In this document: positions 397-28,453 of the stretch, in pieces | Numbering within the stretch: the stretch's first letter is position 1 | How the letters are laid out: the number at the start of each line of letters is the position of its first letter | Origin: Clostridium sp. 'White wine YQ' | GTDB lineage: Bacteria > Bacillota > Clostridia > Clostridiales > Clostridiaceae | Assembly (NCBI RefSeq): GCF_028728205.1 | Contig: NZ_JAQYUU010000001.1 | Location: forward strand, 1,626,082 to 1,658,081 | Length of the DNA: 32,000 nucleotides | Direction: 5' to 3' | Position numbers and translations under genes: made by a program | The notes under the pieces: model-generated | The model's input: the letters and a program-made list of their open reading frames with translations, nothing else | Told to the model about the DNA's origin: nothing | The model's database searches: none

Positions 397-2160
397 TTAA
401 ATACCCCTCTCATCCATATTATATATATCTGAGAACTCAATTCTAATTCTTTCAACACAATTATCTATCATGCTATTAACTTGTTTGTTGCTTTCTTCTC
501 TTGTAATATTGTCAGCTATCCTTATAGGAAGCTTTATTATAAACTTTGTCCCAACCCCATATTTACTTTCAACATCTATATCTCCACTGTGCATTTCTAC
601 AAGAGATTTCACAAGTGATAACCCAATCCCACTCCCTTCATGATTTCTAGCAAAGGACTTATCAACTTGTCTAAATCTATCAAATATTATATTCAACTTT
701 TGTGGAGGAATTCCAATACCTGTATCCTCAACAGTAATAGTTATATACTCTTCTCCATCAAGTATATTTACAAATATCTCTCCTCCTGCTGGAGTAAATT
801 TTACAGCATTGGATAGAAGATTTAAAATTATTCTTTCAATTTTATCTAAATCACAAGCTATCATCTTTTCTTCAACATCAGTATCAAAAGTCAATGATAT
901 ATTATTACTATTTATATACTCAGCTACTGACATAGTGATTTCTTCAACTACATTTATAATATTGCAATTAACCATATTAAGCTCAAAATAACCTGAATCT
1001 AATTTTGTAGAATCAATTAGATTATTTATTAATCTTAAAAGTCTAAAACAGTTTTGCTTTTCTATCTTTAAGTTGTTTAGTACTTTTTCTCTATCTAACG
1101 GCTTGTCTCTATTTTGCATTTCCATTTCAACAATCTGAGTTACCCCAAAAATTATGTTTAATGGTGTTTTTAACTCATGAGAAATATTCCCAAAAAATTC
1201 TGTTCTTAAGTTCTCCAATTCATGCGCTTCCTTTTGTGATGCAAGTTCAGCTAACTTTCTATCTGTAATATCTCTAACTGTGGTTATTATTTCTTCATTT
1301 TCATCAAACTTAATAACACTAGTATTTAATTCTACCCAAAACTCATTTCCATCTTTAGTTGTAAAAATGCACTCAAATACAATAGTGTCATTTTTCCTAG
1401 CTTTTTGAAATGATTGCATTAATTGAATCTTTGTTAGTATTGATTTTTCAGACATAAGGTCATTTATATTCATGTTGATAAGTTCAACATTTGCATATCC
1501 GAACATAGTAGAAGCCGTTTGATTACAATCTATAATTTCTCCATAAAAATCATGAACAAAAATTGCATCGTTTACAGAATTATAAATTGTATATAAATAT
1601 TTTTGATTTTTAGCAAGCTCTCTTTTAGAGAATTCATTTTCAATTCGACTTAGTCCACTTTCTGCTAAGGTATTTACAAGCCCTTGATAATAACCTATTA
1701 TATCTTGTACTTTTTTCTTTGAATACCTAGGCACTCTATCAAGTGCTTCCATATAATCATCTACATCAAATCCAAATTGCAGTGCTTGATTATAGAAGAA
1801 GTCTCTGTCAATTTCCTCATCATCATAAAAGAATTGGCCCATGAAAATTGTAGCCAAATGTTCTCCTGCTATTATAATAGGAACTCCAATATCCCACATA
1901 TTATTTAAGCACTTATACTCAATATATTTTCCCTTTATAAGATTTTCATTAATACTCTTATCACTTAAAGTGCAGCGTTCATTTGTTTCTTGATGTCCTC
2001 TATGAAATTTTGTGCAAATATCTTGCCATCCAATTTTAACATAAATAGTTCCATCAACATCAATAATACCTACAGGAATACCTGAAATGGCGTATAGGCT
2101 TTCGGCCATTTTCTCTAGGGCACTTACATTTACTAATTCCGAAAAATTTAATTTTCCCAT
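397..2160 (-). CDS. Cytoplasmic sensor histidine kinase (PocR-like sensory domain, PAS, HisKA, HATPase_c)
   Basis: N-terminal PocR-type pattern (ISGIPVGIIDVDGTIYVKIGWQDICTKFHRG...ERCTLSD). PAS segment (YTIYNSVNDAIFVHD...RDITDRK). H-box FFGNISHELKTPLN, N-box LLSNAVKFT, G1 EDTGIGI, G2 GSGIGLS. No obvious transmembrane helix. Confidence 0.9.
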   Translation of the reverse strand: MGKLNFSELVNVSALEKMAESLYAISGIPVGIIDVDGTIYVKIGWQDICTKFHRGHQETNERCTLSDKSINENLIKGKYIEYKCLNNMWDIGVPIIIAGEHLATIFMGQFFYDDEEIDRDFFYNQALQFGFDVDDYMEALDRVPRYSKKKVQDIIGYYQGLVNTLAESGLSRIENEFSKRELAKNQKYLYTIYNSVNDAIFVHDFYGEIIDCNQTASTMFGYANVELINMNINDLMSEKSILTKIQLMQSFQKARKNDTIVFECIFTTKDGNEFWVELNTSVIKFDENEEIITTVRDITDRKLAELASQKEAHELENLRTEFFGNISHELKTPLNIIFGVTQIVEMEMQNRDKPLDREKVLNNLKIEKQNCFRLLRLINNLIDSTKLDSGYFELNMVNCNIINVVEEITMSVAEYINSNNISLTFDTDVEEKMIACDLDKIERIILNLLSNAVKFTPAGGEIFVNILDGEEYITITVEDTGIGIPPQKLNIIFDRFRQVDKSFARNHEGSGIGLSLVKSLVEMHSGDIDVESKYGVGTKFIIKLPIRIADNITREESNKQVNSMIDNCVERIRIEFSDIYNMDERGI

Positions 2161-7447: not shown

Positions 7448-8815
7448 TTATTCTTGGATTGCAAAATCTAAATTACCCTCTCTGTCTTTTTTATAAAAAT
7501 ATAAGAATATCCCTAATAAAAATGTAATAAACTCTGCAATAGTCATTGAGAAAATTATTCCGTGAAGTCCAATCAATGAATTTGCAATTATAATTGTTGG
7601 AATAAATAATGTTCCTTGTGAAATAGACATAATAAGTGCCTTTTTGGCTTTTCCTGTTGCTTGAAAATAACTTGTAATTAACCCAGTAAATCCATTAAAT
7701 AAAGTAGATATTAGCATAACACTTAAAATATATATTCCAATTCCTATAAGACTTTTATCTGATGCAAATAATGAGAAAACATCTTTTCTAAAAATATAAA
7801 CTGCTGATGAAAAAACACCTACAATTAATGCAATTGCAATAGCTGTCTGCTTCATTGCACTTTCCAATCGTTTTTTGTTATTAGCTCCAAAGGAATATCC
7901 TATTAAAGGAGTAATGCCCATAAATAATCCCATACATAAAAATTCAGGGAGTTGTACTATACGAAGAGATACTCCAAATGCAGCAATTACGTTATCCCCA
8001 TAACGTACTGCAAAATTATTAAGTAATAATGAGGTAACAATCAAGAAACTCGTCATTAGAAAATCTGAAATTCCAATACTAAAAACCTCTTTTATGATTT
8101 GTTTATCAAAAGAGAAATATTTAAAAGATAAATCTATGTTTTGACTCTTTGTTTGAAGATACCAAATATAATAAATTAAAGAACATAAATTTGATAATGC
8201 AAAGGCTAAAGCAGCCCCGATAACATTAAGATTAAGAACTAAAATTAGAAGTACATCAAATATTAAATTCGCTATAGTCCCTATGATTATCCCATTCATA
8301 GATTCCTTCGCAGCTCCCTCTCCTCTAACAATTTGTTCAAGAGTAAAATTAGCTACTAGAAAAGGTGTTGCTAAAAAAAGAAATGATATATAATTTTTTG
8401 TTGCACTAAATGCTTTTACGTCAGCACCAACAATGCTTGTAATTTGATTTATAAATATCATACATAAAATCGCTACGGATACTCCAAATATCATACTTCC
8501 ATATAGTACAAAAGCAGATACATTTTTAATTTTTTCAGTTTCTTTGGCTCCAAATAATCTTGAAATATAGGTCCCTCCACCTACTCCCCAAATGCTTCCT
8601 AGTGCCATTAACAAAGTCATTACTGGAAGTCCAAAGGTTATAGCTGATAGCATAATTGAATCATGAGTTAGCCCTATAAAAAATGCATTTATAATATTAT
8701 AAATTGCTCCTATAGACATTCCTAGCATCATAGGTATTGATAGGTGCATTATAGCTTTACCCATTGGTGCTTTTTCTAAATAAAATTGATCTGATTTTTC
8801 ATTAATATTTTCCAT
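7448..8815 (-). CDS. MATE family multidrug efflux transporter
   Basis: 455 aa, about 12 transmembrane helices. MatE-like N-terminus (AIMHLSIPMMLGMSIGAIYNIINAFFIG). Confidence 0.9.
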   Translation of the reverse strand: MENINEKSDQFYLEKAPMGKAIMHLSIPMMLGMSIGAIYNIINAFFIGLTHDSIMLSAITFGLPVMTLLMALGSIWGVGGGTYISRLFGAKETEKIKNVSAFVLYGSMIFGVSVAILCMIFINQITSIVGADVKAFSATKNYISFLFLATPFLVANFTLEQIVRGEGAAKESMNGIIIGTIANLIFDVLLILVLNLNVIGAALAFALSNLCSLIYYIWYLQTKSQNIDLSFKYFSFDKQIIKEVFSIGISDFLMTSFLIVTSLLLNNFAVRYGDNVIAAFGVSLRIVQLPEFLCMGLFMGITPLIGYSFGANNKKRLESAMKQTAIAIALIVGVFSSAVYIFRKDVFSLFASDKSLIGIGIYILSVMLISTLFNGFTGLITSYFQATGKAKKALIMSISQGTLFIPTIIIANSLIGLHGIIFSMTIAEFITFLLGIFLYFYKKDREGNLDFAIQE

Positions 8816-8855
8816 TACAAAATACCTCCTGTTTAAACTGTTCGATTGCGAACTA

Positions 8856-8867
8856 TTAGAATTCTAA
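8856..8867. promoter_or_regulatory. Perfect palindrome TTAGAATTCTAA, candidate MarR box upstream of the MATE gene
   Basis: The same 12-mer recurs at 9431-9442 upstream of the adjacent marR gene. Confidence 0.45.
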
Positions 8868-8934
8868 CTATTTGTGTAGCATTTATTAATATAGATATAA
8901 AGCAAATGTACAAAATCTATATTACATATAGTAA

Positions 8935-9366
8935 TTACAGATTTTTGTTTATTTTAGTAAGCAATCTCATTAATGTTTCAGCTTCCTCTTCTGTAAGATT
9001 AGCTGTAACTTCCCCTTCTATCTCTTCAAACCTTTTATTAAATGTTTCAATTAACTCTTTTCCTTTTGGCATAACATATAATCTTTTTTCCCTCTCATTG
9101 TCTTTGGGAATTCTTCTTTCGATATACCCTTTCTTTTCAAGTCCTTGAAGCATACTTGTTATGCTTGCACCTCTCTTATGAAAAAATTCTGCCAAATCTA
9201 TTTGTATTATTCCTTCATGCTCATTAATAAAACCAATTGTGCGTCCTTGTTCTCCATTTAACCCCAGCTCTGAAATACTACTATCTGTTTTATTTTTTAA
9301 CTTAATGCTAATCACTCTAAATAGGTATGAAATTGGCGCAGCTAGCTCTCTCTTCTTATCAGCCAT
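8935..9366 (-). CDS. MarR family transcriptional regulator
   Basis: Winged-helix pattern ITSMLQGLEKKGYIERRIPKDNEREKRLYVMPKG. Confidence 0.85.
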   Translation of the reverse strand: MADKKRELAAPISYLFRVISIKLKNKTDSSISELGLNGEQGRTIGFINEHEGIIQIDLAEFFHKRGASITSMLQGLEKKGYIERRIPKDNEREKRLYVMPKGKELIETFNKRFEEIEGEVTANLTEEEAETLMRLLTKINKNL

Positions 9367-10687: not shown

Positions 10688-11251
10688 TTATTTACCTATA
10701 TTTACTCCAAGTCTATAAGCTTTCATTAATATATTCTTGTTATTTTTAGATGAACTTTTTTCAAAGGCTTTTGTAGCAATTAAAGTTTTAAAATGTTCTA
10801 ATCCCATGCCCTTTAATTGTTTTGCAGTATACCTAAAATAACTTTTAAATAAAAATGAAAAAGGGGCTGCTTGAGTATATACCATTATCAACTTTTTTCT
10901 ACCAAATCTAGGAATGTGTTTTGTCTTAACTATTTCGGTTAATGGATACAGTCTATCCAGAAGTGCTTTAGTTTGTGAAGATACTTGGCATATATATACA
11001 GGGGTTCCTATCACAATATAATCTGCTTTCTTTATTTCTTCGTAAACATCTTTCATATCATCTTTTATAGCACAATCATGTACTTTTCTACAGTACAAGC
11101 ATCCTTGACATCCCCTTATATTCATATCATTTAAGTAATACTTCTTAACAACTCCACCTTCACTTTCAACTCCATTTATAATCTCTTGTACAATGGTATC
11201 AACGTTACCATTTTTTCTTGGACTTCCTATGAATGCAATTACATAAGCCAT
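10688..11251 (-). CDS. Flavodoxin-like fold NAD(P)H-dependent FMN reductase / iron-sulfur flavoprotein-like
   Basis: FIGSPRKNGNV nucleotide loop and CQGCLYCRK...C cysteine motif. The start is 1 nt after the marR stop (TAA-A-ATG), so the two genes are likely translationally coupled. Confidence 0.75.
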   Translation of the reverse strand: MAYVIAFIGSPRKNGNVDTIVQEIINGVESEGGVVKKYYLNDMNIRGCQGCLYCRKVHDCAIKDDMKDVYEEIKKADYIVIGTPVYICQVSSQTKALLDRLYPLTEIVKTKHIPRFGRKKLIMVYTQAAPFSFLFKSYFRYTAKQLKGMGLEHFKTLIATKAFEKSSSKNNKNILMKAYRLGVNIGK

Positions 11252-11252
11252 T

Positions 11253-11702
11253 TTAAACCCCTTCTTCCTTATCTGCGTCTTTTAGATTCATATAAACTCT
11301 AGCTAGATAATTTTCAAATTCTTCAATCTCCTCTTCACTAAAATCTTTATAATAGATTTTCGCCATGTTAGTTACTATACTTTCATATACTCCAACGTAC
11401 TTTCTTCCTTTTTCTGTTATTGAAATTAATGTAGATCTCTTATCCAAATCATTTACTTTCTTTTCTATATTCCCATTAAGTTCCAATCTATCTAACATAG
11501 TAGTAAGAGTAGATTTGCTTACAGATAGTTCTTCGCATAAATTTATAATAGTCATATCATTAAACTTACTTAATATGAGCAATATTCTTCCTTGAGAATG
11601 GTTTATTTTTAAAGACTTATTCTTTTTAATCTGCTTTGTAAAAATCCTTCCTGTTAGAAAATTAATTTTACTAATCCATAACCCACCTAACTTATTATTC
11701 AT
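11253..11702 (-). CDS. MarR family transcriptional regulator
   Basis: LSVSKSTLTTMLDRLELNGNIEKKVNDLDKRSTLISITEKG. RBS GGAGGG upstream. Confidence 0.85.
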   Translation of the reverse strand: MNNKLGGLWISKINFLTGRIFTKQIKKNKSLKINHSQGRILLILSKFNDMTIINLCEELSVSKSTLTTMLDRLELNGNIEKKVNDLDKRSTLISITEKGRKYVGVYESIVTNMAKIYYKDFSEEEIEEFENYLARVYMNLKDADKEEGV

Positions 11703-11719: not shown

Positions 11720-11745
11720 AAACTAGTACTATATAGTACTAGTTT
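11720..11745. promoter_or_regulatory. 26-bp perfect palindrome AAACTAGTACTATATAGTACTAGTTT (candidate MarR operator)
   Basis: Read directly from the sequence. Lies in the divergent region between marR (minus) and the EIIC-MCP gene (plus), and overlaps the putative marR -10 element. Confidence 0.6.
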
Positions 11746-11777: not shown

Positions 11778-11806
11778 TTTACATATATTATCGGAAGCCT
11801 TATTAT
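11778..11806 (+). promoter_or_regulatory. Putative sigma-A promoter of the EIIC-MCP gene
   Basis: TTTACA (11778-11783), 17-nt spacer, TATTAT (11801-11806). Confidence 0.35.
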
Positions 11807-11885
11807 ATAAAGATTTATAGAGGTTTTTCGAAAATTATATATGTCGGAAAACCTAACAAATACAAAAGAAAAAGGAGGACTTAAT

Positions 11886-14021
11886 ATGCAAACAAACGAA
11901 AAAACAAACGCACCAGAGCAAACCTTATTTAGCAAGTTTGGAAACTTTCTAATACAAATGGTTATGCCAAACATAGGAGCATTTATTGCATGGGGAATTA
12001 TTACAGCTTTCTTTATTGCAACTGGATGGGTACCAAATGAAAAACTTGCAACTCTTGTAGGACCTATGATTTCCTACTTACTACCTATACTAATTGGATA
12101 TTCAGGTGGTAAATTAGTTGCTGGCGCTAGAGGAGGCCTTGTAGGTGCTATTGCAACTATGGGAGTAGTTGTTGGAGCAAACATTCCAATGTTCCTTGGT
12201 GCAATGATTATAGGGCCGCTTGGAGGCTTTGTAATCAAGAAATATGATCAAGCAGTAGAGGGAAAAATACCTGCAAATCTTCAGGTTTTAGTAAGCAACT
12301 TTTCTATAGGAATCATATCAGTTATTCTTACTATATTAGCTTTTTTAGGTATAGAACCTTTAGTTTATGCACTAACAGGTATATTTAAATCTGCAGTAGA
12401 ATTTTTCTTAAATGCAGGTCTACTACCATTAACATCATTATTTATAGAACCAGGAAAGATTCTTTTCTTAAATAACACAATAAATCATGGTATATTAGCG
12501 CCTTTAGGTGAACAACAAGTAACTGAAATTGGCAGATCAATATTCTATTTATTAGAAACTAATCCTGGACCTGGACTTGGAATTTTATTAGCTTATTCTT
12601 TCTTTGGTAAAGGACTAGTTAAACAATCTGCACCTGGATCAATAATCATTCATTTCTTAGGAGGAATACATGAGATATATTTCCCTTATGTTCTTATGAA
12701 TCCAGCATTAATACTTGCTGTAATCATTGGTGGAATAAGCGGAAACTTTACCTTTTTAATAACTGGAGCAGGATTAACCGGTGCCCCTTCACCTGGAAGT
12801 ATATTTGCATTAATTAAAATGGCACCATCTGATAAACTCTTCTCAGTTCTTTTAGGCATTATAGTATCAACAATATGTTCATTCTTAGTGGCATCTTTCT
12901 TTATAAAAAGAAAAGGTATTGAATATAACGAAGAGTCAGAACACGGCACAGAAAATGTACAAGAACTTCTTGGATTAATGCAAGAAGCAAAGGATGGTAA
13001 TCTACTTGTAACTTTCGGTGGACATGATGATAATAGTGCACTTGGTAAGGTTATGAAGAGCTTTAATGAAATGATAGGAAATATACGATTCTTGCTTACA
13101 AAAGTAAGTACTACTGCAAATGGAGTAATTAAAAATTCAAACGGTATGACTGAGTACATTGATAGAATTAACACTTCTTTCCACGAAATATCTGCAACTA
13201 TGGAACAAGTTACTTCTGCAGTCTTTGAACAGGCTAATGATACAAGCCATAGTAATGAAAACATGATCGAATTATCTAATAGCATATCTACCTTTAAGGA
13301 TGATATGAGTGATATCTCAAAAACTGTACTTCGTACAAAGCAATTAAGTGAAAATGCAACTAAATCAGTTGATATATTGACAAACAAATCTTCTGAAGTA
13401 AAACAAGCAGCTCAAAAAACTGCTGATAGAATTACTGAACTTAAATTAGATATGCAAAAGGTAAAAGATACAATAAGAATTATCGAAGAAATTGCTGAGC
13501 AAACTAATTTATTAGCATTAAATGCAGCTATTGAAGCAGCAAGAGCAGGAGAAGCTGGAAGAGGGTTTGCTGTTGTTGCTGATGAAGTAAGAAAACTTGC
13601 TAGTGAATCAAAAGATGCTTCAGTTTCTATATCTCAAATAATTAATAATGTTACACAAAAGTCTGAAGAAATAACTAACGAGGTATTAGAAACTGGAAAT
13701 ATGGTAGACGAACAAGCAGATGCAGTTCAAGAAGCTGCCGTTTCCTTCAATGAAATATATTCTGGAATGGAACTTATAACAAAGAGAATTGATAGTGCAA
13801 ATGATTCTCTTAATAATATAACTGTTAAAAATAATGAAACACTTAAATCAATAGAAAATATATCTGCTACTACCGAAGAAACTGCCTCATCTGTTGAGGA
13901 AGTTTATGAAAATACAAAGAAGCAATCAGAAAATATTAGCAAGCTTTTAGATTTTACAAAAGATCTAAATGAAATGGCTAACAATCTTGAAGAAGAAGTT
14001 CGTGCCTTCAAAGTTGATTAA
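11886..14021 (+). CDS. Fusion protein: PTS mannitol-family EIIC permease domain + methyl-accepting chemotaxis (MCP) signalling domain
   Basis: The ORF track gives 11841. The ATG at 11886 follows AAAGGAGGA (11871-11879). N-terminal blocks match MtlA EIIC ([90 protein letters not shown]). The C-terminus has the MCP hairpin-tip signature [35 protein letters not shown]. Confidence 0.85.
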
Positions 14022-14025
14022 AATA

Positions 14026-14060
14026 AAAAGTACTTAGTGTTTTTTCACTAAGTACTTTTT
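14026..14060. terminator. Bidirectional rho-independent terminator
   Basis: AAAAGTACTTAGTG / CACTAAGTACTTTT 14-bp stem with a T6 loop. A-run and T-run flanks. Sits between convergent genes. Confidence 0.7.
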
Positions 14061-14061
14061 G

Positions 14062-15078
14062 CTATTTTAAATTCCTTACTCCTGTTTCTAATATTTCCAT
14101 TAATAATATTGTCTGCTCATCTGTTATTGTTTTACTCTTGCCATTTATAATTGCCTCATATAAATCATCATACACTCTTCCATAATCACCATTAACTGAT
14201 TTTACTTTTTCTTCATGAATTGTGCCTTCTTCGTCTATATAAGTCAGTAGCCCATAATGCTTTATTGTATCAACACCAAAATCAGAATTCTCTGGCATAT
14301 AAAATAATTTCAAATGTTCTTCTTGACGATCTTTTGTCTCTTTTACAAAACACCCTTTTTTCCCATAGACAACAAAACTTGGCCTTTCTTTAACTCTAAA
14401 ATAACTAGATTTTACTGATACCTTAAAAATTCCGTAATACAAATCTAGATCAAAATAATCATTCATTCTCCCTGAGCCTAATAGCTGTCTTACATCATAG
14501 TGAATATTATCTGGTTTTCCAAGATAACTGATTACCTGATCTAATGTATGACAACCATGCCCATACAAGTACGATCCTGTAGGATTGAAATTAGTTATTC
14601 CTTCTGGAATTTCTGGACGAAAATAGTCATAATGCATTTCTAATTCAAGTAATTCTCCTAGTTTTCCTTCTTCTATTACCTTTTGAACTGTTAAAAAGTC
14701 ACTGTCAAAACGTCTATTTTGATATGCTTGAACAATCAGCCCTTTCTCCTTTGCAAGAGAAAATATCTCTTTAGCCTGTTCCGATGTCTCCATAAATGGC
14801 TTTTCAACTAGACAATGTTTATTATGTTCTATCACCATTTTCGCATAATCATAGTGGCTGTCATGATTTGTGCAAACTACAACTAATTGTATCTCCTTAT
14901 CATTGAGTAGTTCACTTAAATTAGAGATATAATTCACCCCATCAATTCTACTCCAGCTTTCATGATTAGGATTTCTTTGATATATAGTTTTCACTTTAAT
15001 ATTTTTTCTCTGAAGTACAAACGGAAGATGATATCTATTAGTACTTTTTCCATTTCCAATATACCCAATTGTAAGCAT
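14062..15078 (-). CDS. Gfo/Idh/MocA family oxidoreductase
   Basis: N-terminal Rossmann IGYIGNGKSTNRYH and the conserved EKP motif (CLVEKPF). Confidence 0.85.
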   Translation of the reverse strand: MLTIGYIGNGKSTNRYHLPFVLQRKNIKVKTIYQRNPNHESWSRIDGVNYISNLSELLNDKEIQLVVVCTNHDSHYDYAKMVIEHNKHCLVEKPFMETSEQAKEIFSLAKEKGLIVQAYQNRRFDSDFLTVQKVIEEGKLGELLELEMHYDYFRPEIPEGITNFNPTGSYLYGHGCHTLDQVISYLGKPDNIHYDVRQLLGSGRMNDYFDLDLYYGIFKVSVKSSYFRVKERPSFVVYGKKGCFVKETKDRQEEHLKLFYMPENSDFGVDTIKHYGLLTYIDEEGTIHEEKVKSVNGDYGRVYDDLYEAIINGKSKTITDEQTILLMEILETGVRNLK

Positions 15079-20141: not shown

Positions 20142-21332
20142 CTAATTTAAATCAAGCTTTTTATACACCTTTAAATATACTAATACTGCATTAATAAATA
20201 ACAGTGCACTTGTAATAAAGAAAACATATTTGAAACTAAACCACGCTGCAATTTGTCCTCCTAGAACTGCACCTGCAAATGCTCCTAAATATCCTGCTGC
20301 TGTAGTAAACCCAAATACTCTACCAGTAAGAGATGTTGGAGTTATTTTTTTCACCAGTATATTCACAGAAGGTATAAGCCCAGCCGCTGTTAATCCAAAT
20401 AAGAAACGTAATATCATTAATTGCCATGGATTTTTTACAAATGCTTGAGGTATAAAAATAATCCCTGCAGCAATTAATGCAACCAGTATAACTTTATGAG
20501 CACCTATTTTGTCTGAAAGTTTCCCAAGCTTTGGAGCAGCTATTATATTTGCTAGACCAGAAGCTGAAAAGGTAATACCTGCAAGTAATGCAATATGATT
20601 AGCATTCTTAGATAACTCTGAAATATAAACTGTAATAATTGGTTCAACGGTATATAGCGCTATTGTTAAAATAAGAAAGGTTATGAACATAGTTATAGTT
20701 AATCCCTTTTCAGGTACGCTATTCCATACTTCCTTTATGCTAAGAGGCTTTTTATCTTCAGGATTAAATGACTCCTTTACAAAAAATAAAGTTGTAATAA
20801 ATGCAATAAATAGTAATGTTCCAGTTATAAAAAATACACTTTTAAATCCTATATAATCGCTAATAAATCCACCAATAGTTGGTCCTAAAAGCGATCCTGC
20901 TATATTTGCTGTAGAAAGTGTACCTAAAGCATACCCTGCATGTGCTTCTTCTGTCTGGGTAGCTATTAATGTAGTGCAGGCAGTACTATATCCTGTAATT
21001 GCTCCTTGCAATAGCCTTAATCCTATAAGTACATAGACATTTGGTGCAAAACCCATTAATCCAACAATTATAGCCATACCAAGACTTGCTCTAAGTAACA
21101 TTGGCTTCCTACCATACCTATCAGCTGCTTGTCCCCAAATTGGTGAGAAAATAGCTGATATTACATAAGTAACTCCAAATGCAATTCCTGATAATTGTGT
21201 AATTGAATTTGTATTTCCTACTCCAAGATGTTTTATATAAAGTGGTAGTATAGGCGCAATCTGACTCATCCCTATTCCAGTTACAAACATTCCAAACCAG
21301 CAAACCATTAAGTTTCTTTTCCATAATTCCAT
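20142..21332 (-). CDS. MFS multidrug-type efflux transporter
   Basis: 12 transmembrane helices. MFS motif A GQAADRYGRKPML. Confidence 0.9.
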   Translation of the reverse strand: MELWKRNLMVCWFGMFVTGIGMSQIAPILPLYIKHLGVGNTNSITQLSGIAFGVTYVISAIFSPIWGQAADRYGRKPMLLRASLGMAIIVGLMGFAPNVYVLIGLRLLQGAITGYSTACTTLIATQTEEAHAGYALGTLSTANIAGSLLGPTIGGFISDYIGFKSVFFITGTLLFIAFITTLFFVKESFNPEDKKPLSIKEVWNSVPEKGLTITMFITFLILTIALYTVEPIITVYISELSKNANHIALLAGITFSASGLANIIAAPKLGKLSDKIGAHKVILVALIAAGIIFIPQAFVKNPWQLMILRFLFGLTAAGLIPSVNILVKKITPTSLTGRVFGFTTAAGYLGAFAGAVLGGQIAAWFSFKYVFFITSALLFINAVLVYLKVYKKLDLN

Positions 21333-21392
21333 AATATTTCATCTCCATTAAATAAATCAAAGTCAGAATATATTCCTTCTGAAAATAATAAT

Positions 21393-21433
21393 AAACTATA
21401 TTTTATAGTTTGTAAACTATTATTTATAGTTTG
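21393..21433. promoter_or_regulatory. Two tandem 20-bp palindromic boxes AAACTAT-N5-ATAGTTTG (candidate TetR operators)
   Basis: 21393-21412 AAACTATATTTTATAGTTTG and 21414-21433 AAACTATTATTTATAGTTTG. Located in the divergent MFS / TetR intergenic region. Confidence 0.6.
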
Positions 21434-21495
21434 ATTAATACATTATATAATGTTAAACTATTCCTATACTTTGAAATTACAAGGAGAGATAGGGT

Positions 21496-22068
21496 ATGCA
21501 GAAACGTAATTTAACCAAAGAGAAAATAATAGAAGTTTCCTTCTCATTAGCTGATGAGATTGGTCTTAGTAAAGTTACTTTTCCTAAAATTGCTGAGAAA
21601 TTGGGTATAAAATATCCTTCATTATATAATCATTTTACTAATATGGATGATCTTAAAACAAAAATGACCATATATCTTTTAAAAAAATTTAATATTACAT
21701 TAATGCAAAAATTAATTGGGAGAAGTGGCGAAGATGCCATTAGGGAATTTGCTAATTCATATAGGGATTTTGCCCTGAAAAATAAAACTGCCTATTGGCT
21801 TTTTACAAATATACCAGAGACTAGAGATGAAGAAGTTATAAATTTAGCTAACGAAACTAAGAATATAGTCCATCAAATTTTAAGCTATTACGTTAAAGAC
21901 GATGAGCTTCAAGTTCATAAAAGTAGAATATTAAGAAGCCTGCTACACGGTTTCGTTACACTACATTCAGTAGGATATTTGCAAGGACCAGTTAGCATTG
22001 AAGAAAGCTTTAAGATTATGATTGATGATTTTATTTTATCTATACAAGTGAATAATATAAATAGGTAG
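21496..22068 (+). CDS. TetR/AcrR family transcriptional regulator
   Basis: HTH FPKIAEKLGIKYPSLYNHF. RBS AAGGAGAG upstream. Confidence 0.9.
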   Translation: MQKRNLTKEKIIEVSFSLADEIGLSKVTFPKIAEKLGIKYPSLYNHFTNMDDLKTKMTIYLLKKFNITLMQKLIGRSGEDAIREFANSYRDFALKNKTAYWLFTNIPETRDEEVINLANETKNIVHQILSYYVKDDELQVHKSRILRSLLHGFVTLHSVGYLQGPVSIEESFKIMIDDFILSIQVNNINR

Positions 22069-22652: not shown

Positions 22653-23381
22653 CTATTCTGATTTTTTATCATTTAGCGCATATTTACGGACTACTAGTAT
22701 GTCTATGCTTCGATTTTTAGCCCTTCCTTCGGCTGTGGAATTGTCATATTTAGGTCTGTATTCACCATCTGCCTCAATTGAAAATTTCTCAGGTGCAACA
22801 TTACCTCTATTAACGAAAAATTCCATAACATTTGAGGCACGCATATAACTTAAGTCCCAATTTGAACGGAACTTTGCATTCTTTATCGGTATATTATCAG
22901 TATGTCCACTAATTCTTATCTCATTATCTAAGTCTTTTATCATACTTGATATTTGTAAAAGCACTGGATTAAATTTTTCTATTACATCCGCTTCACCTGA
23001 ATTGAAAAGAACAGTATCTTGAATGTTAATACTTAATCCTTCTGCACCAAGATTCACTTTTACTTGATTATCATATCCATTGCTTTTAATTTCTTCATCT
23101 AAGGCTGCTTTAATATCAGCCATCTTGTCTTGTTCCATTATACTATTTGTTACTTCAGCTGTCCCAGGAGTATCTCCGCCACTTTCCACCAAGACACCTT
23201 TACCACCAGCAAAAATTGCATTGAAGGTTTGACTTACTCTTGCGAGTTTTTTGTTATCTACTTGACTCATTGCAAACATTACTATGAAAAGTGCCAATAG
23301 AAGTGTCAGCATGTCCGAATATGGAAGAAGCCAGGTTTCATCAACATGTTCTTCATGATGTTCTTTTTTACGTTTCATCAT
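22653..23381 (-). CDS. motB: Flagellar motor stator protein MotB/MotS (OmpA-like C-terminal domain)
   Basis: WLLPYSDMLTLLLALFIVMF, with the conserved channel Asp. C-terminus GHTDNIP...FRSNWDLSYMRASNV. Confidence 0.9.
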   Translation of the reverse strand: MMKRKKEHHEEHVDETWLLPYSDMLTLLLALFIVMFAMSQVDNKKLARVSQTFNAIFAGGKGVLVESGGDTPGTAEVTNSIMEQDKMADIKAALDEEIKSNGYDNQVKVNLGAEGLSINIQDTVLFNSGEADVIEKFNPVLLQISSMIKDLDNEIRISGHTDNIPIKNAKFRSNWDLSYMRASNVMEFFVNRGNVAPEKFSIEADGEYRPKYDNSTAEGRAKNRSIDILVVRKYALNDKKSE

Positions 23382-23395
23382 TGGCCTCCTCTCAA

Positions 23396-24187
23396 TTAAT
23401 TTTCAGTAGTGCTACTACCTTCTTCAAGTCTTTTTCTTTCTTTTGGACTCAACATACTTGCTAATTTTTGTTCAATTGCCTTTGGATTTATACCTTCTTG
23501 TATAGATAAAATACCCTCTAGCATTAATTCCATATTACTTACTTCTACTGTTGACTTTCTTTTAAGTCTTGAAGCAAATGGATGCCAAATAACGTAACCA
23601 AAGAAAATACCGTAAAGTGTCGCAACGAAAGCTGAAGCTATCGATTCTCCAAGTTTTTCAGTATCATTTAGGTTTCCTAGTGCACCTATTAATCCTATAA
23701 CTGCACCTAAAACTCCAAGAGTAGGAGACGTTCCTCCTGCTGTAGTAAACATGGAAGCTCCGACTCTATGTCTTTCTTCCAAAGCTTGAATTTCACCTTC
23801 AAGGACTTGTCTACAAATATCAGGTTCAACACCATCAACTACCATCTCTAAACCCCTTTTCATGAAACCTGCTTCCATCTCTTGAATTTTAGTCTCTAGA
23901 GATAGTAATCCATTTCTACGAGTTTCTTGCGCTAAATTGATTATTAGGTTTATGATGTCTATTGGATCTTGCTTTACTTTATTACTAAAAAGAGCTCCAA
24001 ATAGCTTTGGCATATTTAAGAATTCTTTTGAAGTATAAGCATTCATTACTGCAGCCATAGTACCTACAAGTATAACTATTACTGCTTCTCCATTTACTAG
24101 TATAGCTACACTAGCACCTTTTAAAAGTAATCCTGTCAGAACCGCAAAAAACCCAACAACAATACCAATCAATAGAAATATGTCCAT
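23396..24187 (-). CDS. motA: Flagellar motor stator protein MotA/MotP
   Basis: 263 aa, 4 transmembrane helices. Conserved C-terminal channel region GGTSPTLGVLGAVIGLI...AFVATLYGIFFGYVIWHPFA. 14 nt upstream of motB. Confidence 0.9.
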   Translation of the reverse strand: MDIFLLIGIVVGFFAVLTGLLLKGASVAILVNGEAVIVILVGTMAAVMNAYTSKEFLNMPKLFGALFSNKVKQDPIDIINLIINLAQETRRNGLLSLETKIQEMEAGFMKRGLEMVVDGVEPDICRQVLEGEIQALEERHRVGASMFTTAGGTSPTLGVLGAVIGLIGALGNLNDTEKLGESIASAFVATLYGIFFGYVIWHPFASRLKRKSTVEVSNMELMLEGILSIQEGINPKAIEQKLASMLSPKERKRLEEGSSTTEN

Positions 24188-24538: not shown

Positions 24539-25204
24539 TCATATTTTTGTATTTTCTGCTTTAATAGAATTTATGATCATCTCTAATACAGACGAAGAAA
24601 TATCATCAAACGTAATATCATCATTATTTTCAGGCAATTTAGTATAGCTCATTCTTTGCAGGATTCCCATTATTGTTTGAAATATATAGTAACCAGTTCT
24701 AGTTGGATTTATATCTTTTCTTAGTGTTCCATCACTTATTCCTTTATTAATTGCTGAATTCAGAAAATACTTTTGGCTTTCCTTACTCACAAAATTCACA
24801 TATTTGTTTTTAAGTTCTTCATCTGAATCATAGGAATCATAATAAAGGTCAAATAAAACAATAAATTTCATGTGCTCTCTATGCTCTTTTGCAAATTCAA
24901 TCCATGCATTAAGTATTAATTTAAGTCTTTCCAATCCACTAACATCACTATCATCTCTAACAACTATATATTCCATCATATTATCCAAAACATTCATTTG
25001 CACTTCAAATATTAATTCATCTATGGATTTAAAATGTTTATAAAAAGTAACTCTGCTTACTCCTGCTAAGTTACAAACATCCTTCACGCTAACATTAAAA
25101 AAATTATTTTCTAGAAATAAGTCTCTTGCTGCTGAAATAATCTCAACTCGATTTTTACTTTTTAAATTCTCATGCCATGAATCACTCATTTTATATAACC
25201 TCAT
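24539..25204 (-). CDS. TetR/AcrR family transcriptional regulator
   Basis: HTH VKDVCNLAGVSRVTFYKHF. Overlaps the upstream MFS gene by 14 nt. Confidence 0.85.
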   Translation of the reverse strand: MRLYKMSDSWHENLKSKNRVEIISAARDLFLENNFFNVSVKDVCNLAGVSRVTFYKHFKSIDELIFEVQMNVLDNMMEYIVVRDDSDVSGLERLKLILNAWIEFAKEHREHMKFIVLFDLYYDSYDSDEELKNKYVNFVSKESQKYFLNSAINKGISDGTLRKDINPTRTGYYIFQTIMGILQRMSYTKLPENNDDITFDDISSSVLEMIINSIKAENTKI

Positions 25205-26375
25205 CTTTATCTTTTTTAGTTAAGAATATTGTACCAAAAAGAATTAATGCACCCAATACATATGGCAAATTAAAATTAATATCAAAAAGGTTTCCTGCCA
25301 TTATTGGTCCGATTATATTTCCCATACTAGTATAAGTAGTATTTAATCCAGAAACAAAACCTTGCTCATCACTCTTAGCTTCATTTGATAACAATGTATT
25401 TACAGTTGGCCTTAAAAATGAATTAAATGTAAAAAATAAGGAAGATACAGCTAGAAGGTAAATAAAATTAACTTTCACTATCATTAATAAAAGTGCAATT
25501 GATGTCATTAACAAAGAAAACCTAATCAATTTAAATTCTCCGAATCTAGTTACCACCTTATCTAAAAGCCATACTTGAGTCATAATCCCAATGGCAGCTC
25601 CCAGTGTAATCAATATAGAGATATATTGAGAATTAAATCCATATTTATACTCTGCATAAAGTGAATAAACTGTTTCATAACTAACCAACCCAAAAGTCAT
25701 AACAAGAATTAATAACAAGTATTTAAAATATGACATATGAAATGACCTTGTAAGCTGTTTAATGATTGACTCCTGATTTTTTGATGACTTTGAAATATTT
25801 CTTTTTTCTATTGGAAGAGTTTCTGGAAGTATTATAGTTAGTAATGTTGAAATTAGTCCTAAAAATGAGGCTAAAAAATATGGCACTCGTAATCCAAATT
25901 GAGCTATTATACCTCCAATTCCAGGTCCTAATACCATACCTAAATTCATAGCAGCACTTATGTAACCCATCCCTTTTGCTCTAGTTTCTCTCGTAGTTAT
26001 ATCCGCAACATATGCTAAAACAGAAGGAACCATTATTCCTAACCCAATTCCCCCGATAATGCGGGCTATATAGAGTAGCATTAAAGTATGTGAAATTGCA
26101 AATATAAAATCAGCAATAACAGTTAAAGATAAGCCTGATAGTATCATTATTTTTCTACCATGCCTATCTGAGAGTCTTCCACCAATAGGTGAAAAGATGA
26201 ATTGCGCTGCTCCAAAGGCTGCAACTAGGTATCCTGCAGCCGCTCCAGCAACATTAAATTGCTTAAGATAGTCAGGTAATATTGGAATGACCATACCTTG
26301 TCCCAATAAAGCAATAAATAAATTAAGCATCAATATAAATAAAGGAAACCCCTTTTTTTCATGTAGTTTGAACAT
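25191..26375 (-). CDS. MFS multidrug/tetracycline-type efflux transporter
   Basis: 12 transmembrane helices. Motif A GGRLSDRHGRKIMIL. RBS GGGGGA upstream. Confidence 0.9.
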   Translation of the reverse strand: MFKLHEKKGFPLFILMLNLFIALLGQGMVIPILPDYLKQFNVAGAAAGYLVAAFGAAQFIFSPIGGRLSDRHGRKIMILSGLSLTVIADFIFAISHTLMLLYIARIIGGIGLGIMVPSVLAYVADITTRETRAKGMGYISAAMNLGMVLGPGIGGIIAQFGLRVPYFLASFLGLISTLLTIILPETLPIEKRNISKSSKNQESIIKQLTRSFHMSYFKYLLLILVMTFGLVSYETVYSLYAEYKYGFNSQYISILITLGAAIGIMTQVWLLDKVVTRFGEFKLIRFSLLMTSIALLLMIVKVNFIYLLAVSSLFFTFNSFLRPTVNTLLSNEAKSDEQGFVSGLNTTYTSMGNIIGPIMAGNLFDINFNLPYVLGALILFGTIFLTKKDKDEVI

Positions 26376-26513: not shown

Positions 26514-27164
26514 TTATACACTCTCTATAAAAGGCTTATCATATAACTTCTCTTCACTAACAGACATACTTCTGGCAGCTTCCACCCAATTTTTTTGTCC
26601 CTCTGAAAAAAACATCTCCCTAGGTAGTTTCGGGGATATAAAAAAATTATCTTTTGATTGATTTGAATTATTTAAAATATCATCACTTACTTCTAAGAAT
26701 GTATTATATGCATCTTTTTTGATTTCGCTATTAAAAGGAATAATATCTTTAGTCCCTCTCATAAATTCTCCAGCTCCAATTCCTACACCAAATCTCCACT
26801 CATAACCTACTTTATTGCAGAAATGTTCTAATATTTTAAGAGCATACCTAGTTTGTATTCCCTCAAAGAATCCACAGTTAACTACACCATAAACTTTTAC
26901 AGATTTTCTAATAATCTTAGCTTGTTCTTCTAAATTAACCAAAAACTCAACTACTGTTGATGGCAAAGAATCTACATACAGCGGGAAAGTAATTATTAAT
27001 ATATCTGAACTTGCAAGTTCTTCATAATTCACCTTATTATTTATGACACAATGATTTACTTCAACATTTTCAGGTTGGATAAGCGTAGTAAGTTCATCAA
27101 TAAAAAACTTAGACGCACTATTATTACCTCTTGGACTTCCATTAACAAAATATAATTTTTTCAT
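26514..27164 (-). CDS. Flavodoxin-like fold NAD(P)H-dependent oxidoreductase
   Basis: N-terminus MKKLYFVNGSPRGNNSAS (FMN-reductase-type loop). The start overlaps the upstream stop (TAATG). Confidence 0.7.
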   Translation of the reverse strand: MKKLYFVNGSPRGNNSASKFFIDELTTLIQPENVEVNHCVINNKVNYEELASSDILIITFPLYVDSLPSTVVEFLVNLEEQAKIIRKSVKVYGVVNCGFFEGIQTRYALKILEHFCNKVGYEWRFGVGIGAGEFMRGTKDIIPFNSEIKKDAYNTFLEVSDDILNNSNQSKDNFFISPKLPREMFFSEGQKNWVEAARSMSVSEEKLYDKPFIESV

Positions 27165-27739
27165 TATCTTTCCCCTCCCATAACCTTAATGTAGCTTAAT
27201 ATACTATTTACTAAACTTTCAATTTCTGCTGTCTCTCTACATACATAGCTTTCTGCATTATCCTTTTGAAAGTTTATAGCATTTGCTTGATTTAATCCCT
27301 TAAATGTCTCTTCCTCATTAACGGAAATATCACTACCATAACCAACAAAAACAAGCTCTGGATATTTCTCGTAACGAGGTGCATGATGCATTTCACCATT
27401 GACATCTTTAAAGAAAGGGAGGATTTTGCATATACCACGATCTAATACTCTTTTTATTTTAGGACTATAGCATCCATATTTTACTTCACTTAAGACGATA
27501 TACAAGTCGCTATTTATCTCATCTCTGCTTATATCTCTAGTTATATCATCAAAAACACATAGTCCCGGTGTCTTTAACCAGCAATTAAAACAGCCTACAC
27601 ATTTATTCATTTTCTCATCTTTAACATTATAGTATTTATAACTATAATTACTCTCACTAAGTTTTTTAAGTAACTCTTCTTGAAGTTCTTCTCCCACACT
27701 ATTTGTACCCTCACCATCACTAACTAACAATATATTCAT
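27164..27739 (-). CDS. Flavodoxin-like protein with a Cys motif (iron-sulfur flavoprotein-like)
   Basis: CVGCFNCWLKTPGLCVFDD motif. RBS AAGGAGGA upstream. Confidence 0.65.
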   Translation of the reverse strand: MNILLVSDGEGTNSVGEELQEELLKKLSESNYSYKYYNVKDEKMNKCVGCFNCWLKTPGLCVFDDITRDISRDEINSDLYIVLSEVKYGCYSPKIKRVLDRGICKILPFFKDVNGEMHHAPRYEKYPELVFVGYGSDISVNEEETFKGLNQANAINFQKDNAESYVCRETAEIESLVNSILSYIKVMGGER

Positions 27740-27862: not shown

Positions 27863-28453
27863 ATGGCAAAAGATAACTACCATCATGGTACATTAAAAGA
27901 AGATATGATAAGAAATGGTCTACAACTTTTAAATAAAGAAGGTTTTGAAGGATTTTCATTAAGAAAAGTGGCTAGTATGTGTGGTGTAAGCCATACTGCA
28001 CCTTATAAGCATTTTAAAGATAAAGAAGATTTGATTAACTCAATAGCTTTAGAAGTTTGGCAGGCTTTTTCTGCTTCTTTATTAGAATCTACAGAAAAAT
28101 ATCCTGATAATCCTAAAATTCAAATTCTTGAGATGGGAAAATCCTACGTTAAGTTTATGGTAGAAAATCCTGAATACCTAAAATTTATGTTTCTTACTGA
28201 ACATAAATATCCAATACTTGTTAGCAATAATGAGTTACATCATCTTGATAATTCTCCTTTCCATATTTTCAAAAAATGTTGTGAGAATTACCTTAGTTCC
28301 ATATCAACTAAAAAAGATATGTATTACTTAGATACCCTGTCTATGTGGAGTTTAGTACATGGTATAGCACTACTTATTGCAAATAAAGTAATCGAATATG
28401 ATGGAGATTATTTAGACTTAGTAGAAAATATGATTAATGAAAAACTTAAATAG
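27863..28453 (+). CDS. TetR/AcrR family transcriptional regulator
   Basis: HTH LRKVASMCGVSHTAPYKHF. RBS GGAGGA upstream. Confidence 0.9.
   Translation: MAKDNYHHGTLKEDMIRNGLQLLNKEGFEGFSLRKVASMCGVSHTAPYKHFKDKEDLINSIALEVWQAFSASLLESTEKYPDNPKIQILEMGKSYVKFMVENPEYLKFMFLTEHKYPILVSNNELHHLDNSPFHIFKKCCENYLSSISTKKDMYYLDTLSMWSLVHGIALLIANKVIEYDGDYLDLVENMINEKLK

Follow-up and report, generated by a model that had tools for sequence, protein, structure and literature searches.

In Bacillus subtilis, taxis towards sugars of the phosphotransferase system (PTS) runs through the chemoreceptor McpC. In Escherichia coli, Enzyme I (EI) and EIIA-Glc act on the receptor-CheA-CheW complex and report phosphorylation state and influx, and this signal is independent of any particular chemoreceptor and is not amplified by the receptor array (PMC4996493). 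The idea that the PTS Enzymes II themselves serve as chemoreceptors goes back to Adler and Epstein (1974; cited in PMC4996493). Here we describe a gene from Clostridium sp. 'White wine YQ', located in a 32,000-nucleotide stretch of contig NZ_JAQYUU010000001.1 (positions 1,626,082 to 1,658,081, forward strand; hereafter the window), whose product joins the membrane domain (EIIC) of a mannitol-type permease, MtlA, to the signalling domain of a methyl-accepting chemotaxis protein (MCP). We lean towards the view that this protein is a working chemotaxis receptor in which the membrane domain of a mannitol-family PTS permease, a non-phosphorylating EIIC, has taken the place of the usual sensor module (transmembrane helix 1 (TM1), dCache domain and TM2) and acts as ligand sensor. 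The E. coli pathway and the fusion would have in common the sugar site of a permease as the point of attractant recognition (PMC4996493). They differ in that the E. coli signal is indirect, whereas the fusion has the permease domain covalently built into the receptor, with no phosphorylatable PTS domain alongside.

Membrane transport folds are used as signalling inputs in several other systems, and this is what links them to the fusion. Ammonium-transporter-kinase fusions are transporter-fused sensors, and sensory rhodopsin and its transducer Htr are separate proteins that signal by lateral TM contacts. CbrA, a solute-symporter domain fused to a histidine kinase, is a transceptor (PMC8871633), and PTS_EIIC fused to GGDEF/EAL enzymes of cyclic di-GMP metabolism has been listed as a rare architecture (PMC8846402). 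The fusion differs from these and like sensors in its output, an MCP hairpin that feeds the chemotaxis kinase. In the searchable literature, which leaves most subscription-journal papers outside its scope so that absence is not proof, we found no description of a transporter or EIIC domain fused to an MCP. The initial annotation of this locus, made from the sequence alone, had likewise known of no characterised example. The architecture is apparently undescribed, its new element being a transporter-derived sensor in a modular chemoreceptor.

Each half of the protein has a well-known counterpart. Canonical MtlA (EIICB in Bacillota, EIICBA in E. coli; TC 4.A.2) resembles the fusion in its match to the EIIC model, in 54-74% sequence identity, in the putative sugar-site motifs, in the fold and in the start of the linker. 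The fusion departs from it in having neither EIIB, with its Cys, nor EIIA, in having no mtl or PTS neighbours, in the replacement of GFEM by NLQV, in a rewritten N-terminal helix, in a His195 that is not fixed and in a C-terminus made of HAMP and MCP domains. The dCache_1-HAMP-MCP receptors of Clostridia, about 710 aa long, share with the fusion the 44-heptad length class, the tip sequence, sequence patterns of methylation sites and the HAMP domain onward. They carry their own TM1-dCache-TM2 sensor, and the fusion has a polytopic transporter domain instead.

Domain architecture of the fusion protein

Both halves are recognised by family models. Pfam detects PTS_EIIC (PF02378) at 66.4 bits (cutoff 30.7) and MCPsignal (PF00015) at 127.7 bits (cutoff 34.6), and the NCBIfam model of the MtlA EIIC domain, TIGR00851, matches residues 17-343 at 473.0 bits, a small margin over its cutoff of 468.4 (E 4.6e-142). 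Pfam finds no PTS_IIB (PF02302) or PTS_EIIA_2 (PF00359) domain in the protein, and PRK15083, the model of IICBA, falls short of its cutoff for want of the B and A parts. Since EIIB and EIIA are missing, the fusion has no phosphorylatable domain of its own. The roughly 33 other open reading frames (ORFs) of at least 100 aa in the window also yielded no PTS or mannitol-pathway domain.

The N-terminal 343 residues constitute a polytopic EIIC that stands in place of an extracytoplasmic sensor between TM1 and TM2. No Cache, 4HB or other sensor domain was found in the protein, and it lacks the classical two-TM topology of an MCP. The order of domains is an MtlA-type EIIC, a 17-residue linker, a HAMP domain and a 44-heptad MCP hairpin. 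The protein belongs to the MCP superfamily, its input being unconventional; it also carries a genuine MtlA-family EIIC without amounting to a complete Enzyme II. Much of this had been anticipated in the initial annotation. The motif blocks that it quoted for the MtlA EIIC occur verbatim in the translation, its assignment of the N-terminal half to this family is borne out by PF02378 and TIGR00851, both above their cutoffs, and the MCP half with its hairpin tip, the missing EIIB and EIIA, and a window devoid of other PTS genes were all confirmed.

The junction between the two halves

The segment between the two halves had been described as a linker of about 60 aa ending in an AS2-like helix. The AS2 helix is present, but a bare AS2 is not what the junction contains: it consists of the 17-residue linker followed by a HAMP domain with both helices. 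With hhalign, a profile of six fusion proteins aligned to the Pfam-delimited HAMP domains of ten dCache chemoreceptors at 98.1% (E 6.7e-14), covering HAMP positions 10-52. On this alignment, the junction holds a complete predicted HAMP domain inherited from a dCache-type chemoreceptor. Residues 357-711 share 38-42% identity with the dCache_1-HAMP-MCP receptors of about 710 aa, and the match begins exactly at their HAMP domain. In the pair inspected, the alignment with one such receptor (P0343) is gap-free through the signalling hairpin. Compared with P0343, the fusion has about 10 extra linker residues and is without the usual leading Pro segment of HAMP.

On its other side the linker resembles MtlA. 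It begins like the linker between the C and B domains of canonical MtlA, as in P0009, which ends ...FFIKRKGNVGEETDLE, and the segment retained in the fusion reads FFIKRKG... The linker length and several of its residues (KRK, a Tyr, a Glu, a Gly and Glu-Asn) are conserved across the fusion family. Most economically, the TM1-dCache-TM2 module of a chemoreceptor gave way to an MtlA EIIC that brought the first part of its linker along or, equivalently, EIIB gave way to a HAMP-MCP unit.

The signalling half

The MCP half has the parts expected of a kinase-controlling receptor domain. The Glu at the hairpin tip is residue 556 and is followed by 155 residues, which gives 22 heptads per arm and places the protein in the 44-heptad class. 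The tip is nearly identical to those of its relatives. Methylation-site consensus sequences, identified by pattern only, occur in the C-terminal arm of 5 of the 6 family members and in the N-terminal arm of 3 of the 6. The best match of this half in the Protein Data Bank is Thermotoga maritima TM1143 (entry 2ch7). We modelled the protein with AlphaFold2 (AF2), always as a monomer. In the full-length model (mean predicted local distance difference test score, pLDDT, 73.5) AS2 runs without interruption into a helix of residues 385-553, followed by a turn (554-558) and a return helix (559-707). The protein has no close MCP relative: the best full-length match to an MCP that is not a fusion was 36% identical in a search of 90%-identity clusters and 42% in an exhaustive search.

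The window also contains a pair of flagellar stator genes, motB (MotB_plug and OmpA domains) and motA, at 22653-24187 on the minus strand, a presence that fits a working chemoreceptor. We saw no che genes within the 32 kb.

Distribution and selection

At least eight independent assemblies (from NCBI, Logan, ENA and JGI), which derive from isolates and metagenomes, each encode the fusion in one ORF; the products are 58-78% identical. The carriers are Clostridium yunnanense YIM B02505 (78%), two metagenome-assembled genomes at NCBI, and assemblies from Logan, ENA and JGI (74-76% and 58%). Junction and linker length are the same across these assemblies. Among 1.84 billion representatives at 50% identity, an exhaustive HMMER search returned one representative with both halves, and a scan of 185,579 species-representative genomes with the junction alignment found the junction in C. 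yunnanense only. The same genome collection gave no match when scanned with the single protein, for which the patterns were too specific.

Purifying selection acts on both halves. By the Nei-Gojobori method, EIIC has a dN/dS of 0.09-0.19 and the signalling domain one of 0.08-0.30, with higher and noisier values for the short segment of linker and HAMP; dS is about 0.6 or more in the two large segments, and many pairs lie beyond the limit of correction. These results bear on whether the gene could be an assembly chimera or a frameshifted pair, the two possibilities that the initial annotation proposed to exclude, or a recent accidental fusion nearing loss. Such a view could draw on the extreme rarity of the family and on an older NCBI record that annotates only the last 238 aa as an MCP. 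Against it stand the single open frame in the window, a junction and linker of identical length in at least eight independent assemblies at 58-78% identity, and purifying selection on every segment at a depth where synonymous sites are heavily diverged and often saturated. Because it recurs in at least eight assemblies and is maintained by purifying selection, the gene is not a chimera, a frameshifted pair or a decaying pseudogene, and we regard this explanation as excluded. The fusion is real, rare and conserved in several Clostridium lineages.

Several candidates for further members of the family were rejected. Two proteins from ENA metagenome assemblies, P0006 (1026 aa) and P0008 (742 aa), looked like larger fusions and turned out to be E. 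coli-like MtlA sequences with internal tandem duplications of EIIC, most likely assembly artefacts; they ranked high in homology because EIIC is present twice. Matches of about 710 aa to the C-terminal half, considered as other transporter-MCP fusions, are ordinary dCache_1-HAMP-MCP receptors by Pfam, and the other long or two-stretch matches are canonical IICB(A) proteins or a double-MCP protein.

The surroundings of the gene differ by lineage, with no conserved neighbour gene and no conserved PTS neighbour, and no EIIB gene lies beside the fusion in the five neighbourhoods examined. In the window (10688-11702 and 14062-15078) and at the locus of one other fusion protein, P0003 (L004, 1947-4728), three kinds of gene lie close to the fusion in common: FMN_red, a small upstream gene of regulator size, and a GFO/IDH/MocA oxidoreductase. 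This partial synteny suggests that the window and P0003 lineages are orthologous. The neighbourhoods in the other fusion lineages are completely unlike these two.

The good conservation of the transport half might suggest that the protein is still mainly a transporter, a polyol facilitator whose MCP hairpin serves to target it to the polar array or to place it under the array's regulation. EIIC domains on their own can support slow facilitated diffusion, as is reported for the E. coli mannitol Enzyme II. We find this account very improbable: a complete HAMP domain, methylation motifs and a canonical kinase-control tip, all under selection, are what a receptor needs and not what a localisation tag needs, uptake without phosphorylation would leave the sugar untrapped, and no kinase or dehydrogenase gene is linked to the fusion.

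Conservation of the EIIC half

The EIIC domains of canonical Bacillota MtlA proteins are about 80% identical to one another, against the 54-74% that they share with the fusion proteins. To locate the differences we defined 170 near-invariant columns, each at least 95% conserved in 112 canonical sequences. Fusion proteins depart from the consensus at 18-39 of these columns, compared with a mean of 1.5 and a maximum of 8 in canonical sequences and 13 in E. coli MtlA; the protein of the window is the least diverged fusion EIIC (18 of 170). The near-invariant columns kept in all six fusion proteins number 1 of 7 in the N-terminal helix, 51 of 78 (65%) in the scaffold half and 69 of 86 (80%) in the transport half, the difference between scaffold and transport being only marginal (Fisher p 0.036). 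Judged from these alignments, the EIIC half is a diverged MtlA subfamily in which changes appear weighted to the scaffold half and the N-terminal helix and are not random. Switches common to the whole family affect Q10, R14 and S17 in the N-terminal helix, turn GFEM into NLQV, and include G151E, L161F, G164A, A192T and G310D.

Across 114 sequences that include the six fusion proteins, E188-P189-x-K191, F194, N196-N197, N200, E224 and PSPGSI are invariant. So are all the putative sugar-site motifs tested, LFLNN, NPGPG and GIHE, the exception being the His of NHG (H195). By homology, these invariant motifs would line the sugar site of EIIC. The isolated EIIC domain of MtlA binds mannitol with high affinity. 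GFEM, 98-100% conserved in canonical MtlA, is changed in 6 of 6 fusion proteins. At His195, 99% of canonical MtlA sequences agree, whereas the six fusion proteins have H, M, H, H, H and Y. We take Ser124 of E. coli MtlA, which adjoins GFEM, to be the residue that cross-links across the dimer and to the active-site Cys384 of EIIB; His195 presumably affects phosphorylation more than binding. If these assumptions and the high-affinity binding by isolated EIIC are right, the pattern would fit a sugar site that has been kept and an EIIB interface that has been released. Constraints of phosphotransfer appear to have been lost at H195 and at GFEM, in the cytoplasmic TM4-TM5 loop, and we count this in favour of a receptor.

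The same data weigh on the proposal that the protein senses the state of the PTS, its EIIC docking a phosphorylated EIIB in trans (for instance a free EIIB, the B domain of some canonical MtlA or a regulator that has EIIB-like domains) and reporting phosphotransfer or flux through the mannitol PTS. EIIB and EIIC on separate polypeptides are common among PTS systems, the sugar-site motifs are intact down to GIHE, which has been implicated in linking binding to phosphorylation, and the contig of one homologue holds HPr, EIIA and a PRD/EIIB/EIIA regulator within 8 kb. We nevertheless consider the proposal unlikely, given that the otherwise invariant cytoplasmic GFEM has been replaced in all six fusion proteins, that His195 is not fixed among them, and that the five neighbourhoods contain no EIIB beside the fusion and are not conserved.

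A further reading of the divergence would make EIIC an anchor only, a dimeric membrane domain that binds no sugar, with some other membrane or cytoplasmic cue sensed through the HAMP or signalling domain. The 18-39 near-invariant departures against a canonical mean of 1.5, the remodelled N-terminal helix and scaffold half, and a flexible linker that argues against tight mechanical coupling all speak for it. An anchor would not be expected to show a dN/dS of about 0.1-0.2 over 330 residues, however, nor to retain, in all six proteins, 121 of the 172 near-invariant MtlA columns, every putative sugar-site motif among them, and relatives typically make do with much simpler two-TM anchors. We judge this reading quite improbable.

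Fold and proposed mechanism

An AF2 model of EIIC only, built from the 114-sequence alignment (pLDDT 81.9; predicted template modelling score 0.76), served for fold comparison, because coiled-coil proteins overwhelmed a search with the full-length model. Foldseek matched it to 9a2w, an integrative model of E. coli MtlA (E 1e-19), and to 9a6a_B and 9a3b, and to the cryo-EM structures of the glucose EIIC of Vibrio cholerae and E. coli (9lgt_A, E 1.7e-3; 8qsr_A, E 8.6e-3); models of TreP and PtsG were also among the matches. The predicted structure has the EIIC fold of the Glc-Fru-Lac superfamily, with a scaffold and a transport domain. In EIIC proteins of the Glc family, dimers form through the N-terminal scaffold (TM1-5), and the substrate is carried between hairpins of the C-terminal transport domain, which moves in an elevator-like way (PMC12900739). 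By homology, the last EIIC helix (315-342) of the fusion should belong to the moving transport domain, with its C-terminus in the cytoplasm, because MtlA carries EIIB there.

A model based on these data, and on the view that the protein is a working receptor, is the following. Extracellular mannitol or a related polyol would bind the transport half of the EIIC homodimer, and ligand occupancy would shift an elevator-type conformational equilibrium. The shift may be passed on to the HAMP bundle by way of the last TM helix and the linker, which is conserved; an alternative route would be direct contact between HAMP and EIIC at its remodelled cytoplasmic side, in the TM4-TM5 loop near the dimer axis. 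HAMP would then set the CheA-controlling state of the signalling hairpin, and adaptation would proceed through methylation at the consensus sites. Because there is no EIIB, the sugar would be left unphosphorylated, and ligand occupancy, not PTS flux, would be reported to an amplifying and adapting receptor array. Sensing of hexitols without phosphorylation, by conformational coupling, is plausible. The more specific version goes further: in this natural chemoreceptor the ligand would bind at the intramembrane substrate site of an elevator transporter, and the vertical shift of the transport domain, passed on by the last TM helix and the acidic linker, would be the input to HAMP. We put this version forward more tentatively, as possible though short of probable.

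Several points weigh against the working receptor and its proposed mechanism. The last TM helix and AS1 do not form one continuous helix but are separated by a Gly-containing acidic stretch of 17 residues. Rigid piston coupling as in Tar appears doubtful, because the linker is flexible, is modelled with a pLDDT below 50 and is about 10 residues longer than in the dCache receptor. By analogy with other EIIC dimers, the transport domains would lie off the axis on which the HAMP bundle must form. The Pfam HAMP model gave no match to the junction even at E values up to 10. The identity of the ligand is suggested by family membership only, within a family whose model TIGR00851 the protein barely reaches and from whose near-invariant columns it departs at 18 of 170, and the Fisher p of 0.036 makes the surplus of scaffold-half changes no more than marginally significant.

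Gene context and features

The fusion gene lies in a window of low G+C content (about 30%) as a single continuous ORF (11841-14021, plus strand) in the ORF list. Its functional start is the ATG at 11886, with AGGAGG seven bases 5' of it; the upstream in-frame ATG at 11841 has no Shine-Dalgarno-like AGGAGG site. The product is identical to RefSeq WP_443112614.1 of Clostridium sp. 'White wine YQ', which starts at the same position and is named only 'mannitol-specific PTS transporter subunit IIC'. The older NCBI record, WP_274228080.1 (238 aa, 'methyl-accepting chemotaxis protein'), corresponds to the C-terminus only (13305-14021). Neither name conveys the EIIC-MCP fusion. The coordinates of the gene and its parts are collected in Table 1.

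Table 1. Position of the fusion gene, its protein segments and its flanking signals within the window.
Feature	Position	Strand	Basis
Sigma-70-like promoter candidate, TTTACA-17-TATTAT	11778-11806	+	Consensus match only, 10/12 positions
Ribosome-binding site AGGAGG	11873-11878	+	Seven bases before ATG 11886
EIIC-HAMP-MCP fusion coding sequence, 711 aa plus stop	11886-14021	+	ORF, Pfam, TIGR00851, RefSeq
Amphipathic helix at the N-terminus (residues 13-24); canonical MtlA has QKFGRFLSGM here, rewritten in the fusion	11922-11957	+	Alignment; helix predicted by AF2
EIIC scaffold (dimerisation) half, residues 25-176, about TM1-TM5, boundary approximate	11958-12413	+	AF2 helices, fold match, scheme of PMC12900739
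NLQV replacing MtlA GFEM (E. coli 125-128), cytoplasmic start of TM5	12276-12287	+	Alignment
EIIC transport (substrate-binding) half, residues 177-343; hairpins with LFLNN and NPGPG; last TM helix 315-342	12414-12914	+	Alignment, AF2, fold match
His201, equivalent of E. coli MtlA His195	12486-12488	+	Alignment
GIHE motif	12663-12674	+	Invariant in 114/114 aligned sequences including fusion proteins
Acidic linker, residues 341-357	12906-12956	+	Alignment; AF2 pLDDT below 50
HAMP domain, residues 358-401 (AS1, connector, AS2)	12957-13088	+	hhalign; alignment to HAMP domains of dCache receptors
MCP cytoplasmic signalling hairpin, residues 402-711, 44-heptad	13089-14018	+	Pfam, length count, AF2
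Methylation-site consensus ATMEQVTS, N-terminal arm, residues 437-444	13194-13217	+	Sequence pattern only
Hairpin tip, CheA/CheW-binding region in other MCPs	13497-13601	+	Alignment
Methylation-site consensus ATTEETAS, C-terminal arm, residues 661-668	13866-13889	+	Sequence pattern only
Bidirectional hairpin terminator, 16-bp stem then T run	14024-14061	.	3' of fusion stop codon

The gene is flanked by a divergent marR (11253-11702, minus strand) and a convergent GFO/IDH/MocA oxidoreductase gene, and it looks monocistronic because, between these two, it has a promoter-like site and a terminator of its own. Promoter-like sites in the region are no more numerous than expected from shuffled sequence. 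Inspection of the upstream region by eye revealed neither a SigD-type promoter nor a cre site that was convincing. Between marR and the fusion gene, at 11720-11745, lies a perfect 26-bp palindrome (AAACTAGTACTAT followed by ATAGTACTAGTTT); it is probably a MarR operator and could act on the fusion gene promoter too. Among the fusion-bearing genomes, marR adjoins the fusion gene in the window only. An antisense ORF of 233 aa with a TTG start (12686-13387, minus strand) lies within the fusion gene; it comes from a mechanical listing and shows no sign of being a gene.

Elsewhere, the window is rich in pairs of a small regulator and an efflux-type transporter: a MarR/MatE pair, two TetR/MFS pairs and additional TetR and MarR genes (7448-9366, 20142-22068, 24539-26375 and 27863-28453). 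Downstream of a TetR/MFS pair are two ORFs of 216 and 191 aa (26514-27164 and 27164-27739, minus strand) for which Pfam gives no match at E up to 1e-5. The histidine kinase encoded at 397-2160 (minus strand), which combines a PocR sensory domain with PAS, HisKA and HATPase_c, appears unrelated to the fusion.

Significance

The current RefSeq name has a practical consequence. Because it mentions only the PTS half, metabolic reconstructions would wrongly credit the Clostridium genomes that carry the fusion with a component of mannitol uptake and would miss a chemoreceptor. For the study of receptors, the fusion offers a simple test of whether the sugar site of an EIIC alone, without phosphotransfer, can act as a chemoreceptor. 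It would also be a compact system in which to follow how an elevator motion is converted into control of HAMP and kinase, and with the fusion as a template, receptors could be engineered from transporter specificities. The significance of the finding is tempered by the tiny size of the family.

If it is true that a permease domain has here been wired directly into an MCP, these clostridia would have a second, direct solution to the sensing of PTS sugars beside the indirect one, and the 1974 proposal of Enzymes II as chemoreceptors would be realised covalently. A PTS-type sugar site would thereby gain the amplification of the receptor array and adaptation by methylation, both of which are absent from indirect PTS signalling.

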